This document shows, in pieces, positions 3,654 to 35,618 of a DNA stretch of 64,000 bases (position 1 is the stretch's first letter; every line of letters begins with the position of its first letter). The translations under genes were made by a program, and so were the position numbers. The stretch lies in the IMG/VR virus record IMGVR_UViG_3300021087_001082, positions 1 to 64,000 of that record; one strand, 5' to 3'. The notes under the pieces were generated by a model. That model ran no database searches. It saw only the letters and a program-made list of their open reading frames with translations, and was not told the origin of the DNA. The DNA comes from a virus (lineage: Duplodnaviria; Caudoviricetes).

Positions 3654-3664
3654 TTAGGAAAAAA

Positions 3665-3874
3665 ATGAAAAGGCTATTATTAATTTTTACAATGATGGCA
3701 ACATGGATAGTTGTTAGTTGCAGCAGTACAGCAGGATGTTTTGGGCATTGGGTTAAAGGGCCAGGCCCTCAAAGAGGGACTAGAGATCTTAATCGAGACG
3801 CTAAATTACCTTATTACCAATGTGTAGATGAGAATAACAAAGGTAGTAATTTAGAAAGACGGAGTTCCCCGTGA
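3665..3874 (+). CDS. small putative lipoprotein
   Basis: MKRLLLIFTMMATWIVVSC signal peptide ending in a lipobox-like Cys; likely start lies after the tRNA. Confidence 0.55.
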   Translation: MKRLLLIFTMMATWIVVSCSSTAGCFGHWVKGPGPQRGTRDLNRDAKLPYYQCVDENNKGSNLERRSSP

Positions 3875-3878
3875 CCAA

Positions 3879-10344: not shown

Positions 10345-11890
10345 ATGATAGAGCCAGAAGTAAGTACGATCGCAAAAGAGATGGTTGAGGGGTTCCATAA
10401 TTATGAACCACTTGTTGGCGCAACGTTAAAATCATACGTTGAGACTACAAGTTCTATTGGCCTTGTCACTGCAGATAACAGTAATTTGTTATTTGGCGGT
10501 TTCAGCTTATTCTGTTCTACACTTCCTGGTACTCAGTTCATATGTGTACCAATGGCAGTAGGTTTTGTCTACGAATGGTTCGATCAGACGATCGCACACA
10601 TGTTTTAACATACCGGTGATCAACCACCGAAGCGAAGAGTTGGGAGGGTGGCGGTTAACTTTAATTTATTATGAGAGAGATTATGCTATTACAAGAGATA
10701 TTAAGATTCATAGGAACGACCATCGTCTTTGGTGGTCTGATGTATTTAACAACAATTCTTTTCTTTGTATTATAGAGGCTGTATGGAAGATAATAATTTT
10801 TTAGTTGGTGATAAAGTAGTCATTGGAACTTCTATAAGAGAAGAAGCCGGTGAAATTAAACATCAATTTTTTACAATGACAGGACCAGCTTACGTGGTTG
10901 AATATGATGATGGAACTGCAGAAACTGCAGACCATGATGATATAATTTTAGCACCAGAAGATTTTGTTGCACCTGTTGTGGGATTTAAATATGCAACTAT
11001 TGAAATCTTGAGAGAGAAAGAAACGATTTTCGATTCACCAACATCTGGAAAATATTTTGTTCGAGAGTGGACAGTGACAGATGGAGAAAGAGAAGAGCGA
11101 TCAGGAACGTTTTTTAAAACAATGAATGAGGCTGAAAATTATGTCAATGAATATCAAAGTTAATATGAAAAATGATAATCCGTTTAAACCTAATACTAGT
11201 AGAGTTGATAGATTAGAAACTCAGATATTAATTCTTATGGAGAGAGTCGCTACATTAGAAAGGGACTTAACATATCATATAAAAGAGTCTGAAAGATGTT
11301 AACATACTTATGGAGTCAAGGAATGGTAGATACAATAGCAAAAAAAGTTGCTGAAGAACCTACTGATTTTCAAATTGCAGAACAAATATTGGATAATGTA
11401 CCTCAACATGTGATTGATGAGGAACGTGGAGATATGATTAGAATGTTGAGAAAGGAACAAGCTCAACGTGAAATGTATGATGATCCTTATATGAATTGGT
11501 CAGGTCATAGATGATAATAACAACTACAGCTATAATGGCGGTTCAAGCTATTATTGTTACATGGATAATGGTTACCGCACCCGAAGAATGTCCTATGAAG
11601 TATAGGAAGACAATTGAAGAAGGTGGTGTACTAGAACATCAAGGACAGCTGAATGATTATTGTGTTACCGCATCCCTACCTTATGGAAGATATTACTGGG
11701 TTTTAAAAGAAGAAGAATAATGTTGAAATATATTATTTTAGGATTTTTATTAGGCTATGCATTTAGTTTTGTTAGCCAAGATTGGTACATGTTTTTTCAT
11801 CTTCACTTTATTAAAGCTTGTAGATGGGCAGAATTACCACACGAAGTTTGGGCATTCATGGATCAATATATATTTTTCGGGGCCTTATAA
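10345..11890 (+). CDS. cluster of small early hypothetical proteins (10345-10608, ~10783-11163, 11296-11514, 11511-11720, ~11720-11890)
   Basis: tandem + strand ORFs downstream of the early promoter; no recognisable domains. Confidence 0.55.
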
Positions 11891-11964
11891 CTCGCAGTGT
11901 CCGAGTGATTAGGAGATGGTCTGCAAAACCATTTACGTTGGTTCGATTCCAACCTGCGAGTCCA
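11891..11964 (+). tRNA. tRNA-Cys(GCA)
   Basis: CTCGCAG/CTGCGAG acceptor, ATGGT-CT-GCA-AA-ACCAT arm, U73 and CCA. Confidence 0.94.
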
Positions 11965-11972
11965 CTTTTACC

Positions 11973-12001
11973 TTGACATTTTATTTTTAATGTAGTATAA
12001 T
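11973..12001 (+). promoter_or_regulatory. sigma70-type early promoter
   Basis: TTGACA-N17-TATAAT. Confidence 0.85.
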
Positions 12002-12168
12002 ATAACTTTATAATAATTAACAGAAAGGAATAAGCATGGAAGCTATGACACATTGTTCTGAAATAATATCTACTCTCACAACTACACATCTTATTGGGGG
12101 TATAATGTTCTTCGCTATGGCATTTTGTTTAGGAGCACTTTTTGAAAAGATACAGCAGGAGAAAGCGA

Positions 12169-12378
12169 ATGCAGTCAGGTAAGCGAGTCCGACAAGAGAA
12201 TGCTTTAAAGCGTTTAGAGAAAACCGTGATCGCTCATACTGCGGGTCCGGAATTGGTAAATAAGATTTTGGGGGATAAAAAACTCTCCAAAACTTCCGAT
12301 GAGATAGAAAAAATTCGGAAGAAAAAACTGGTCCGCGCCCAGCTAACAATTGATAATACAAAAGCGCGATTAAGATAG
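12169..12378 (+). CDS. small basic hypothetical protein
   Basis: AGGAGA SD before ATG 12169 (MQSGKRVRQ...). Confidence 0.55.
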   Translation: MQSGKRVRQENALKRLEKTVIAHTAGPELVNKILGDKKLSKTSDEIEKIRKKKLVRAQLTIDNTKARLR

Positions 12379-12655
12379 GTATACCGAGGCGGTGGCTAGA
12401 AGGTCAGCCCTCCCTAAACTGGAGCAGGGGATCTTCGAAGGCTGGAGGTAATGTAGTACATCAACTACATTATTGCTCACTGGGTGATGGCCTCACCAAG
12501 CACCTTATCGATGTCTTTCCATATAAGGAAAGACTTAACGGTTTGGGAAATTTTCCTAACTACATCTTAACGCGTTGAGATGACAATTGGAAATGCTGGT
12601 GACCAGGTGTAGGTATACTAGGAGAAGGGGGTTCCTGATCAGGGCTCCCTTGTCC
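12378..12655 (+). ncRNA. putative multi-hairpin ncRNA, unknown class (~240 nt plus 3' hairpin)
   Basis: GGTATACC/GGTATACT closing helix (12378-85/12612-19) encloses hairpins TAATGTAGT/ACTACATTA, GTCTTTCC/GGAAAGAC and CATCTTAA/TTGAGATG; strong hairpin at 12621-12655. Confidence 0.65.
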
Positions 12656-12680
12656 GTTAACAATTAGAAAGGAATTATTA

Positions 12681-13046
12681 ATGCATTATTGCTTCGATAT
12701 TGATGGTACTATTTGTACTAACAGAGATACAGTAAGAAAAGAAAAAAATGATAATACGATTACTTATATGGATATGGAACCATGGCAGGATCGGATCGAT
12801 CATATAAACGCTCTATATGATAAAGGTCATCGTATTATAATGTGGACAGGAAGAGGTTGTAGAACTTATTCTGATAATCCAGAATTTTGGAAACCACAGA
12901 CTGCAGAACAATTAAAAAAATGGGGTGTTAAGTACCATGAATTAATTGTAGGTAAACCTTTTTTTGATGTATACATTTGTGACAAATCTCAAAACTCTGA
13001 AGCATGGTTTTCTATTAGTGAGGCATTAGACGGCGATGCCCTTTGA
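12681..13046 (+). CDS. HAD-superfamily phosphatase (capsule-biosynthesis phosphatase-like)
   Basis: FDIDGT motif I, WTGR motif II, GKP..DVYICDK. Confidence 0.85.
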   Translation: MHYCFDIDGTICTNRDTVRKEKNDNTITYMDMEPWQDRIDHINALYDKGHRIIMWTGRGCRTYSDNPEFWKPQTAEQLKKWGVKYHELIVGKPFFDVYICDKSQNSEAWFSISEALDGDAL

Positions 13047-13326
13047 AGTTAAAACGAAGCAATATGAAACCCATATACAAGGTAAGGAATTTAAACCGAT
13101 GAAAGCTATATTAGAATTTGAATTGCCTGAAGACTATGAGAACTATCTTCAATCACAATACGGTATGAATTGGTCTTTAGCTATGTGGGATTTAGAACAG
13201 TATTGCAGAAATGAGATTAAACACCGAGAAGAATATTATTCAGAGGGGGAACAGGAAGTTTTACAAACAGTCCGTGATAAGATAGTAGAGATCATGAACG
13301 AATATAATTTAAAATACCCAACATAA
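13036..13326 (+). CDS. hypothetical protein
   Basis: 96 aa ORF ending at tRNA-Tyr. Confidence 0.6.
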   Translation: MPFEVKTKQYETHIQGKEFKPMKAILEFELPEDYENYLQSQYGMNWSLAMWDLEQYCRNEIKHREEYYSEGEQEVLQTVRDKIVEIMNEYNLKYPT

Positions 13327-13411
13327 GGGGAGGCTGTGCAATGGTGAGCTCAACAGACTGTAAATCTGCCGTCTTTCGACTGTGATGGTTCGACTCCATC
13401 CCTCCCCACCA
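13327..13411 (+). tRNA. tRNA-Tyr(GTA)
   Basis: GGGGAGG/CCTCCCC acceptor, CT-GTA-AA loop, type II variable arm, ACCA; position 8 is C rather than the usual U. Confidence 0.92.
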
Positions 13412-13421
13412 AAGGAATATT

Positions 13422-13739
13422 ATGAGTATAACAGAAGGTGCTTTATATGATAGATTTGATCTAGAAGAATCTATAGTACAGTTAGGACAAATTTCAGATG
13501 ATGTAAAATTACTATCTGAGAATGTTATGGAGAATCTTGATATTAATACTGATACAATTGTTAATGCATTAACGGGATTAGAGACAATACATAATATGCG
13601 TTTTGATAAATGCATTGAAGTATTAGAATATGTTATTGGTACAAAGATATTAGATAATAAAAATTATAATCATCCTAATTTAGTAAAAAAGGTCCCAAAA
13701 GACGAATGGGATGAGACAGGAAGTTTTCAGGACTTCTAA
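13422..13739 (+). CDS. hypothetical protein
   Basis: 105 aa ORF with AAGGA SD. Confidence 0.65.
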   Translation: MSITEGALYDRFDLEESIVQLGQISDDVKLLSENVMENLDINTDTIVNALTGLETIHNMRFDKCIEVLEYVIGTKILDNKNYNHPNLVKKVPKDEWDETGSFQDF

Positions 13740-34549: not shown

Positions 34550-34946
34550 AATCAAGCTGAAACAACCTGATGATTTTTTAAAAGTAAAAGAGACTTTAAC
34601 AAGAATTGGTGTGGCATCCAAGAAAGATAAGACTCTATATCAGAGTTGTCACATTCTTCATAAACAAAGTCGGTATTACATAGTACATTTTAAAGAGTTG
34701 TTCATGCTAGATGGGAAACCATCTAATTTTTCAGATAATGATGCAGCACGGCGTAATACAATAGTTAATCTATTAGCAGAATGGGATTTAGTACAAATTG
34801 TGGATAACGATAAAGTTAATGACAATATTGTTCCCATTAATCAACTAAAGATTATATCGTTCAAAGAAAAGGACGAATGGAATTTAGTGGCAAAATATAA
34901 TATTGGAAATAAGAAAAGTGACGACACTAAAATTGAAAGTACATAA
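34521..34946 (+). CDS. regA: translational repressor RegA
   Basis: DDFLKVKETLTRIGVAS, LYQSCHILHKQ, YYIVHFKELF. Confidence 0.97.
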   Translation: MSIEVEALVEIKLKQPDDFLKVKETLTRIGVASKKDKTLYQSCHILHKQSRYYIVHFKELFMLDGKPSNFSDNDAARRNTIVNLLAEWDLVQIVDNDKVNDNIVPINQLKIISFKEKDEWNLVAKYNIGNKKSDDTKIEST

Positions 34947-35427
34947 ATTATTTGATGATGTTCAAATTCCCCAATTTTCCACAAAAGGTTCAGCATGCTT
35001 TGATATACATGCATACTATAGACCTGAAGCTGGATATAAGGTTTGGAATGAAGATAAAAAAACATTTATAGAAAGAAAAGATTCTTCTATAACAATTCAT
35101 CCATTTCAAAGGGCATTGATTCCAACAGGATTGATTTTAGATATCCCAAATGGATATTCAGTAAGAATACACCCTAGATCTGGAACAGCAATTAAACAGG
35201 GCATGAGCTTAATTAATTGCGAAGGCGTAATCGATTATGATTACGTAGAACCATTGTTTATTGCTTGTGTGAACCTTTCAGAAGTTCAAACAATCATTAT
35301 AAATAATGGCGACAGAGTCGCTCAGGGCGAACTTGTCGAAATGACTCATTACGAAATTGAGGAGTCGTCTACTAAGCCTACTCAAAAGACTGACCGCGAC
35401 GGTGGTTTTGGAAGTACTGGCAAATGA
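34903..35427 (+). CDS. dut: dUTPase (trimeric)
   Basis: GSACFDI, PRSG, GVIDYDY, GDRVAQ, RDGGFGSTG; real start may be GTG 34918. Confidence 0.95.
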   Translation: MEIRKVTTLKLKVHKLFDDVQIPQFSTKGSACFDIHAYYRPEAGYKVWNEDKKTFIERKDSSITIHPFQRALIPTGLILDIPNGYSVRIHPRSGTAIKQGMSLINCEGVIDYDYVEPLFIACVNLSEVQTIIINNGDRVAQGELVEMTHYEIEESSTKPTQKTDRDGGFGSTGK

Positions 35428-35618
35428 GTAGATTTAAAGTTTTAGGGCACAGTTACGACTTAGAAATATACGAAGAAGTTTTAACTGATCCTGAAAAAGG
35501 TACTATTGAATTCGACGAGGTCGGAGTGTATAGTGCCAAATCCATACTAGAGTTAGTATGGATTGTTCTTAAACATCGGTTTGAACATCTGCTCGCTGGT
35601 GAGGGATGGAGAGACTGA
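35424..35618 (+). CDS. hypothetical protein
   Basis: 64 aa, coupled to dut. Confidence 0.55.
   Translation: MSRFKVLGHSYDLEIYEEVLTDPEKGTIEFDEVGVYSAKSILELVWIVLKHRFEHLLAGEGWRD

Follow-up and report, generated by a model that had tools for sequence, protein, structure and literature searches.

A probable structured RNA carried behind a small basic protein gene in one lineage of marine T4-like phages

The RNA3 locus

We examined RNA3, a stretch at 12378-12655 (+ strand) of a 64,000-nucleotide piece of phage DNA (the window), taken from the start of an IMG/VR virus record (IMGVR_UViG_3300021087_001082) that is 76.8 kb long and rated 44% complete. RNA3 is most likely a genuine structured RNA of a previously uncatalogued family (no Rfam 15 match). 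It is known from one lineage of uncultured marine T4-like myoviruses, where it forms the downstream part of an optional two-part cassette that begins with ORF78, an open reading frame (ORF) for a small basic protein. Among the products encoded in the window are a family B DNA polymerase, a class II ribonucleotide reductase and radical-SAM enzymes. The polymerase shares ~50% identity with its counterparts in T4-like cyanophages, which are the nearest phages in culture, so that the source phage is, judged by this gene, an uncultured marine T4-like myovirus. ARAGORN finds seven tRNA genes in the window, and RNA3 lies between two of them, among the following features.

11891-11964, + strand: tRNA-Cys (GCA), found by ARAGORN and by Rfam (57.4 bits)
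11973-12001, + strand: sigma-70-type promoter (TTGACA, 17 nt, TATAAT; 12/12 hexamer matches)
12036-12182, + strand: ORF48, small and hydrophobic, unmatched in Pfam and PHROG
12169-12378, + strand: ORF78, encoding a small basic protein (69 aa, start codon ATG at 12169) without Pfam or PHROG matches
12378-12655, + strand: RNA3 with its 3′ hairpin
12681-13046, + strand: gene for a HAD-superfamily phosphatase-like protein of 121 aa (HAD gene), with Pfam HAD_PNKP and PHROG matches
13327-13411, + strand: tRNA-Tyr (GTA), found by ARAGORN and Rfam, probably within the same transcription unit

Gene order after the promoter is ORF48, ORF78, an ORF-free stretch at 12379-12680, the HAD gene, ORF96 and tRNA-Tyr. 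The promoter would drive all of these genes and RNA3 with them, and a search of 11700-13500 for terminator-like sites on the + strand found none. A first-pass annotation of this DNA had placed the element between tRNA-Cys and tRNA-Tyr, downstream of an early promoter; both neighbors and a consensus promoter are there, and the promoter is conserved at 89–92% in five related loci (L002 and L087-L090), while that it is early, and that it is used, we infer. Seven gaps in the window reach 120 nt or more without a + strand ORF of at least 45 aa; the ORF-free stretch is among them and has the highest GC content (0.46; window 0.346). Within RNA3 the longest ORF on either strand is at most 36 aa.

No known RNA family accounts for RNA3 in the searches we made. 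At gathering thresholds the 4227 models of Rfam 15 give six tRNA matches over the whole window and nothing else, and at E ≤ 10 the region 12100-12900 yields three weak matches, none of them within 12378-12655. One homologous locus described below (L087) matches Rfam only at its tRNA. Several specific candidates were rejected. For a tRNA, an intron-bearing tRNA or a transfer-messenger RNA (tmRNA), ARAGORN returns nothing either by default or when relaxed (introns up to 400 nt and tmRNA mode; 0 genes in 12250-12800), and there is no Rfam tRNA match at E ≤ 10. For the RNA of a retron or a diversity-generating retroelement, no RVT_1 match was found in the 76.8-kb record (44% of the estimated genome), with positive controls in three genomes. 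Self-cleaving ribozymes and group I/II introns appear excluded as well, with no match to their Rfam models. A riboswitch or cis-regulatory leader is not among these rejected candidates. The observations that bear on it are that there is no terminator-like site, that the 3′ hairpin has no U tail, and that the HAD gene occurs with its leader and without RNA3 in three loci (L002, L091 and L092).

Direct searches for further copies of RNA3 were negative over a wide range of sources. Blastn matched 236 of 50,697 GenBank phage records, and among the matches listed only the tRNA-Cys and tRNA-Tyr parts of the query were covered; nhmmer and blastn against 84 viral loci gave no homologue. Exact-pattern scans found no copy in IMG/VR outside the window’s own record (one further pattern held a variable base and counts less) and none in JGI metagenomes or GTDB genomes. 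A covariance model of RNA3 (R1) recovered only RNA3 itself among 86 sources and nothing in 50 whole viral records (0/50), and a radical-SAM neighbor used to seek close relatives returned only the contig already known. Homologues were reached through a metagenome scan with an alignment of ORF78, which gave 71 loci that were then searched with R1. Four of these match (L087-L090; 220–224 bits), and in all four the element starts at the stop codon of ORF78, with the GC-rich hairpin and then the HAD gene behind it, as in the window. The L087 and L089 RNAs are identical, leaving four distinct sequences, window included.

Fold, constraint and presence in RNA libraries

The predicted fold of RNA3 comprises the following parts, with pair probabilities where computed.

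12378-12620, + strand: core, multi-helix, ~243 nt, closed by P1; z −4.32
12378-12385 / 12612-12619, + strand: P1, an 8-bp end-to-end helix, 0.98
12391-12399, + strand: 5′ strand of P2, the second closing helix, which pairs with 12596-12604 with one G.G mismatch
12399-12436, + strand: hairpin A, 0.92–0.96, with a conserved base
12448-12473, + strand: hairpin B, 10 bp with a 6-nt loop, 0.98
12503-12546, + strand: hairpin C on an extended stem; inner stem 12513-12534, 1.0
12552-12593, + strand: hairpin D in an outer helix; inner 12563-12582, 0.94; outer 12552-56/12589-93, 0.74
12621-12655, + strand: GC-rich hairpin of 35 nt with no U tail, in the minimum free energy (MFE) fold, with 1–2 changes in L087-L090

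The first base of RNA3 overlaps the ORF78 stop codon (TAG, 12376-12378). Hairpin B retains 10/10 pairs in all four sequences, two of them through one-sided wobble changes, and hairpin C, with its extended stem (12503-04/12545-46 plus 12507-10/12539-42), is paired in all cells. The loop of hairpin C is variable and carries a 2-nt deletion in the homologues; at 12522, a loop position that also varies among homologues, one RNA-library contig (X16) has C, not T. The loop region of hairpin D, AACGCGUU, is invariant. Hairpin A is hypervariable in its distal part (~12404-12433), where 18/30 columns differ and the homologues are 6–7 nt shorter, and its distal columns (27-56) still form a small hairpin whose loop varies among L087, L088 and L090.

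P2 competes with a helix at 12494-12502 / 12594-12601 for a single 3′ strand (12594-12604), and both helices are 100% paired in the four sequences. P2 is predicted by the RNAalifold consensus. Of the MFE folds computed one by one, those of L087 and L088 contain it, that of L090 lacks it, and that of the window has only part of it. The first-pass annotation had described two closing helices around a wheel of about six hairpins, with a long GC-rich hairpin lacking a U tail behind it. Both helices are found as named, P1 at high probability and P2 with its mismatch, and so is the 3′ hairpin at 12621-12655. Four hairpins (12399-12436, 12448-12473, 12513-12534 and 12563-12582) reach probabilities of 0.92–1.0, and two more that it had named (GGUGA/UCACC and UUGGGAA/UUCCUAA) can form yet fall outside the MFE; the bare wheel folds at −64.3 kcal/mol, whereas the MFE is −86.8 kcal/mol. 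We regard P1 and hairpins B, C and D with their extensions as solid; for the rest, at least three topologies, the wheel among them, fit the four sequences equally well.

Folding energy supports these predictions without singling RNA3 out. All 278 nt fold at −106.9 kcal/mol (z −4.86) and the 245-nt core gives the z-score listed above, and in neither case do any of 200 dinucleotide shuffles equal it; the minus strand is weaker (z −3.80). However, a coding window at 35341-35585 folds equally strongly (z −4.99, 0/200 shuffles as good), and in a composition-corrected scan of 1063 windows it comes top while the RNA3 grid windows rank ~12th, so that energy alone does not distinguish RNA3 and counts only as supporting evidence. 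RNA 1, a real family described below, gives only z −0.30 with the boundaries used (730-1011), and we therefore rejected folding energy as a discriminator. The 35341-35585 segment (+ strand) spans the junction of two small ORFs (34903-35427 and 35424-35618), and its fold could be mRNA structure at a gene junction, or chance.

The homologues retain most of the predicted pairing. In the RNAalifold consensus 99% of 304 cells pair, compared with 31–45% when partners are slid, and 15 pairs vary on one side with pairing kept while three have unpaired cells. Scored on the MFE fold of the window itself, 95.1% of cells are paired and two pairs show changes in both partners. The pair 12497/12599 is C-G in the window, U-A in L087 and L088, and U.G in L090; this double change (C12497U + G12599A) fits only the helix 12494-12502 / 12594-12601 and not P2. 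Columns 27 and 53, in a register shifted by one bulged base, are C-G in L087 and U-A in L090 (alignment read by eye). Many helix pairs are G.U, or turn into G.U in the homologues, and because G.U pairs become A.C mismatches on the other strand, they mark out RNA of the + strand as the folded form, not the opposite strand or DNA.

The core is also constrained in sequence. Between the window and L087, 13/213 core sites outside alignment columns 27-56 differ (6.1%), compared with 47/286 third codon positions of ORF78, HAD and ORF96 (16.4%; P = 4e-4, Fisher’s exact test). Indels in the homologues (2 nt and 6–7 nt) are not multiples of three and no ORF is shared, which excludes a coding region: the RNA3 stretch is non-coding.

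Fourteen marine DNA runs from nine studies hold at least 99% of the sampled words of 11500-13500, and six RNA runs hold parts of this region. Contigs over RNA3, at 99% identity or more, were present in 4/4 of the RNA runs examined (of the six; three studies), spanning 12297-12628, 12397-12634, 12297-12663 and 12404-12670. RNA3 is therefore present in RNA libraries, although these contigs are not proof of a discrete species, and their depth and uncovered stretches are not usable as evidence (for example, the 28.5-deep X18 contig over RNA3, the lack of X18 contigs on the flanking ORFs, or the start at 12297 shared by X15 and X17). The first-pass call of an unassigned structured RNA at 12378-12655 is borne out by this presence, by conservation in related phages and by the lack of a known family in the searches above.

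The ORF78-RNA3 cassette and related slots

ORF78 stands directly upstream of RNA3 in 5/5 copies. ORF78 represents a real protein family: an alignment of five of its sequences has 23 invariant columns, and 628 clusters belong to the family at a threshold of E ≤ 1e-3. At least nine of these clusters are 74–90% identical to the protein of the window, and the 120 clusters listed are all free of Pfam domains. Proteins of this family, seen in the window and in loci L082-L157, are very common in marine phages, 69–73 aa long, basic and all-helical. AlphaFold2 predicts three helices for ORF78 (mean pLDDT 79), and Foldseek finds no match to this model in the PDB at E ≤ 0.001; its weak rows are generic helical hairpins (Rop, E 2.8), to which we give no weight. 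Gene orders in the window and in related loci are as follows.

Window: tRNA-Cys, promoter, ORF48, ORF78, RNA3, HAD
L087 and L089: promoter, ORF78, RNA3, HAD
L088 and L090: promoter, ORF133, ORF78, RNA3, HAD
L002 (~90% identical): promoter, ORF133, HAD
L091: ORF78, terminator-like hairpin, small membrane ORF, HAD
L092: ORF78, ~44 nt, HAD

L002 lacks ORF78 and RNA3 together, and its homology with the window resumes at 12651, the end of the cassette. Because a ~90%-identical phage is without both, ORF78, RNA3 and the 3′ hairpin form an optional accessory unit. The first-pass annotation had suggested that three different large structured RNAs in one tRNA array make up an RNA-based toolkit for host takeover or anti-defense; the one pointer in that direction is the existence of close relatives without the cassette, which fits an accessory function without telling which. 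ORF48 is outside the cassette, since it is absent or replaced in L087-L090. The HAD gene occurs too in relatives without RNA3, and relatives of it were confirmed in 177 viral stretches; its product matches Pfam HAD_PNKP slightly below the cut-off (E = 5.4e-6; 27.0 bits, cut-off 27.6), PHROG 1238 (E = 3e-25) and PHROG 415 “polynucleotide kinase” (E = 3e-13). Further downstream, tRNA-Tyr is found in L087-L089 as well.

We surveyed what follows ORF78-family genes in 70 loci with at least 120 nt after the stop codon, probably with some duplicate assemblies of one sequence among them. In 20/70 loci a tRNA gene begins no more than 100 nt after the stop codon, mostly tRNA-Arg(TCT) at 0–10 nt, and in six (L096, L098, L101, L110, L145 and L146) an element of the RNA 1 type lies directly behind the ORF78-family gene. 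The next ORF abuts the gene in about half of the 70, and 66/70 have no RNA3 behind it. With tRNAs or RNA 1-type elements in this position elsewhere, RNA3 occupies a slot where relatives keep processed stable RNAs.

RNA 1 and RNA 2 are two other unassigned RNAs that had been noted in the same tRNA region of the window, and each has relatives. RNA 1 is a family of at least the following members.

Window: 730-1010, + strand
L110: 2718-2961
L095: 1913-2157
L101: 2710-2823
L145: 702-873
L146: 2734-2905
L098: 2704-2866
L096: 2089-2261

Across seven sequences, 6/8 pairs of its 8-bp closing helix change in both strands and remain paired, with an invariant GAG behind the 5′ strand of that helix and GGUA ahead of the 3′ strand. 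The element ends just ahead of tRNA-Leu in L096, L145 and L146, and the family has no Rfam match at E ≤ 1. RNA 1 resembles RNA3 in sharing its phage and tRNA region, in occupying elsewhere the same slot behind ORF78-family genes (the six loci above), and in being closed by an 8-bp helix with GAG right after its 5′ strand and GUA right before its 3′ strand. The two differ in size, P1 enclosing ~95 nt in RNA 1 and ~225 nt in RNA3. RNA 2 (2317-2542, + strand), directly before tRNA-Asp, has a 13-bp closing helix and a z-score of −2.71 (1/200 shuffles as good), and nhmmer finds weak relatives (E 0.003–0.008) in L107, L149, L150, L145, L146 and L117. A 15-nt resemblance between RNA 2 and RNA3 (11/15 identical) is at chance level by our own estimate. 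Consistent with the first-pass annotation, which saw no obvious similarity of RNA3 to either RNA, nhmmer finds nothing between RNA 1 and RNA3, and the RNA3 covariance model has no hit in the window besides RNA3; switching its filters off adds just one match, to the closing helix of RNA 1 (6.9 bits; E 0.075 over 4.4 kb). Paralogy of RNA3 with RNA 1 or RNA 2 was rejected on this basis.

Candidate roles of RNA3 and further observations

We favor reading RNA3 as a non-coding RNA that is stable, acts in trans and is processed out of an early polycistronic transcript, comparable in kind to the T4 species 1/2 RNAs and to GOLLD and ROOL; the proposal could as easily fail as hold. The promoter at 11973 would make a polycistronic early transcript of the small ORFs, ORF78, RNA3, the HAD gene, ORF96 and tRNA-Tyr; the 8 bp of P1 would bring both ends of RNA3 together, giving a compact body of several helices; this body would be set free by the host RNases responsible for maturing the neighboring tRNAs; and P1 and the GC-rich hairpin would shield it from exonucleases. 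RNA3 may then act in trans in an accessory role, as a protein-binding scaffold or decoy, and the co-inherited ORF78 protein is a candidate partner. The proposal takes in the constraint, non-coding state, + strand pairing, cassette behavior, shared tRNA slot and RNA-library presence observed above, and would add to them promoter use, processing, stability, trans action, a partner and a role.

Two groups of known RNAs offer comparisons. The T4 record annotates rnaC (species 1, 139 nt) and rnaD (species 2, 119 nt) in its tRNA cluster. Like RNA3, they are structured non-tRNA RNAs in the tRNA region of a T4-like phage, accessory-looking and of unknown function. They are co-transcribed with the tRNAs; co-transcription of RNA3 would follow from its position between tRNA-Cys and tRNA-Tyr with one promoter and no terminator. 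They are half the size of RNA3, which in turn is separated from the tRNAs by protein genes; by eye, rnaC has a tRNA-like T arm and rnaD ends in CACCA, and RNA3 has neither. Precursors of the two T4 RNAs are cut by tRNA-processing enzymes. Homology was rejected, as the RNA3 model reaches at most 5.4 bits in the T4 region 69500-74500 with filters off, and no listed match has the length of rnaC or rnaD. GOLLD (RF02032) and ROOL (RF03087) are described as multi-helix RNAs with no assigned function that frequently occur in prophages and close to tRNAs (PMC5737381), and as folding alone into RNA-only homo-oligomers (PMC12286853). RNA3 shares with them a place near tRNA genes in phage or prophage DNA. 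Unlike them, it has no Rfam match even at E ≤ 10 and is known in just one marine phage lineage, and its 243-nt core is small for a class that exceeds 500 nt and has several multistem junctions and pseudoknots (ROOL averages 581 nt, and GOLLD is larger). A set of 8495 computationally predicted structured RNAs (csRNAs) from IMG/VR viral contigs, tRNA-like ones included, is reported in PMC10690425, and RNA3 could in principle already be among them.

Several results weigh against the trans-acting reading, or against the structured RNA on which it builds. There are only four distinct RNA3 sequences, ~8–11% apart, and the consensus structure derives from those same four; a shuffle control is uninformative for it. 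The count of double changes is matched by 70/500 shuffles, and covariation is not significant. The basal pair 12564/12581 of hairpin D is broken (an A.G mismatch) in all homologues, the 5′ half folds differently among the separate MFE predictions, and coding DNA can fold as strongly (35341-35585, above). The 6.1% of the core is not significantly different from the figure for all codon positions taken together (75/858, P = 0.26), and the constraint shown is on sequence rather than demonstrably on RNA structure. Two RNA-library contigs run from inside ORF78 (its last 80 nt) into RNA3, and assembled contigs can give neither ends nor strand nor level and may reflect DNA carry-over. Finally, an antisense small RNA against phage messages was rejected, with no complementary match of at least 12 nt to the + strand elsewhere in the window.

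The same linking contigs would suit a cis-acting part of the mRNA that is never released, a structured intercistronic or 3′ untranslated element that stabilizes the ORF78 message against 3′ exonucleases or sets the processing or translation of the HAD gene. RNA3 lies inside a transcription unit without a + strand terminator-like site, starts at the ORF78 stop codon and ends 26 nt ahead of the HAD start; its GC-rich hairpin without a U tail resembles a 3′ protective or processing hairpin, and ORF78 and RNA3 are co-inherited (5/5). Yet the HAD gene retains the same leader and ribosome-binding site without RNA3 in L002, L091 and L092, most ORF78 loci (66/70) do without RNA3, no terminator/antiterminator arrangement or masking of the ribosome-binding site was noticed (by eye only), and ~240 nt of constrained multi-helix structure far exceeds the needs of a stabilizer hairpin. 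We consider such a cis element unlikely, though a serious contender; if it is the answer, RNA3 is an ordinary finding.

Less probable still, RNA3 would be a leftover, neutral or selfish, that folds by chance and does nothing for the phage, such as foreign DNA in decay or the relic of a mobile element. Its narrow spread (five sequences of one lineage, with 0 matches in IMG/VR, GenBank phages and GTDB genomes), its variable presence among close relatives, a GC content unlike the rest of the genome and the strong folds of coding DNA would all fit. A decaying relic sits poorly, however, with a core that changes 2.7 times slower than adjacent third codon positions, with 15 one-sided changes and one two-sided change that preserve pairing against three consensus pairs with unpaired cells, and with one genotype (at least 99% of sampled words) recurring in 14 marine DNA runs of nine studies; nor did we find nearby repeats, inverted terminal repeats beyond P1, a transposase or a reverse transcriptase. 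That RNA3 works as DNA, double-stranded or extruded, in the manner of a replication origin, recombination hotspot or packaging signal, is very improbable. T4 replication origins lie just downstream of strong promoters, as RNA3 does, and RNA3 is rich in palindromes (for example GGTATACC, TTCGAA and CCTGATCAGG) and folds well on the minus strand too (z −3.80). But many of its pairs are G.U, and its changes between A-U or G-C and G.U would be mismatches in DNA and on the other strand; homologues disrupt two of the palindromes (GGTATGCC in all of them, TTCAAA in L090), and the element is dispensable in a 90%-identical relative.

A bolder extension of the trans-acting reading, which we offer as a long shot, is that marine T4-like phages carry exchangeable modules, each made of an ORF78-family protein and the RNA encoded directly behind it. 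That RNA, be it a tRNA (20/70 loci), an RNA 1-type element (6) or RNA3 (4), would be bound, chaperoned or loaded by the protein, and the closing module common to RNA 1 and RNA3 (8-bp helix, GAG, GUA) would serve the protein as docking site. RNA3 might then be a ribonucleoprotein subunit, possibly self-assembling through the invariant palindromic AACGCGUU loop as ROOL and GOLLD do, and aimed at host RNA-targeting defense or at host takeover.

The RNA3 family is real but narrow, and of the new leads the linkage of ORF78 with RNA is the most useful. Ever since the T4 species 1/2 RNAs came to light, stable RNAs without an explanation have been a feature of phage tRNA regions; from GOLLD and ROOL it is clear that elaborate RNA-only assemblies can arise, yet none of these RNAs has a known function. 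RNA3 adds a compact ~240-nt example from what its nearly unchanged recurrence in 14 marine DNA runs of nine studies indicates is an abundant uncultured marine phage. Near-identical phages with and without the ORF78-RNA3 cassette are natural controls, so its function can be tested by comparing them or by supplying the cassette. In addition, a very common basic protein (at least 628 clusters) linked to tRNA or structured-RNA genes behind it is a lead on how RNA cassettes move or work.

Other observations concern the surroundings of RNA3 and the neighboring arrays. tRNA-Cys (11891-11964) is missing at the matching position in L002 and L087-L090, where homology skips from 11890-11893 to 11965-11966, and tRNA-Cys and ORF48 (compared over 12004-12168) come and go independently of each other among these phages, which are ~90% identical here. 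The consensus promoter between the two is retained in all of them, and the region is a hot spot of block exchange. Between tRNA-Val and tRNA-Gly, a GC-enriched gap at 3654-3878 (+ strand) holds an ORF whose start resembles a lipoprotein signal peptide (MKRLLLIFTMMATWIVVSCSS); since it folds no better than shuffles (z −0.41), it is probably coding (a lipoprotein ORF) rather than an RNA gene. Lastly, a GC-rich, ORF-free stretch of ~200 nt behind tRNA-Leu in L146 (2990-3200, + strand) shares words with RNA 2 (nhmmer E 0.0077), and this resemblance suggests that several RNA families are strung together in that array.

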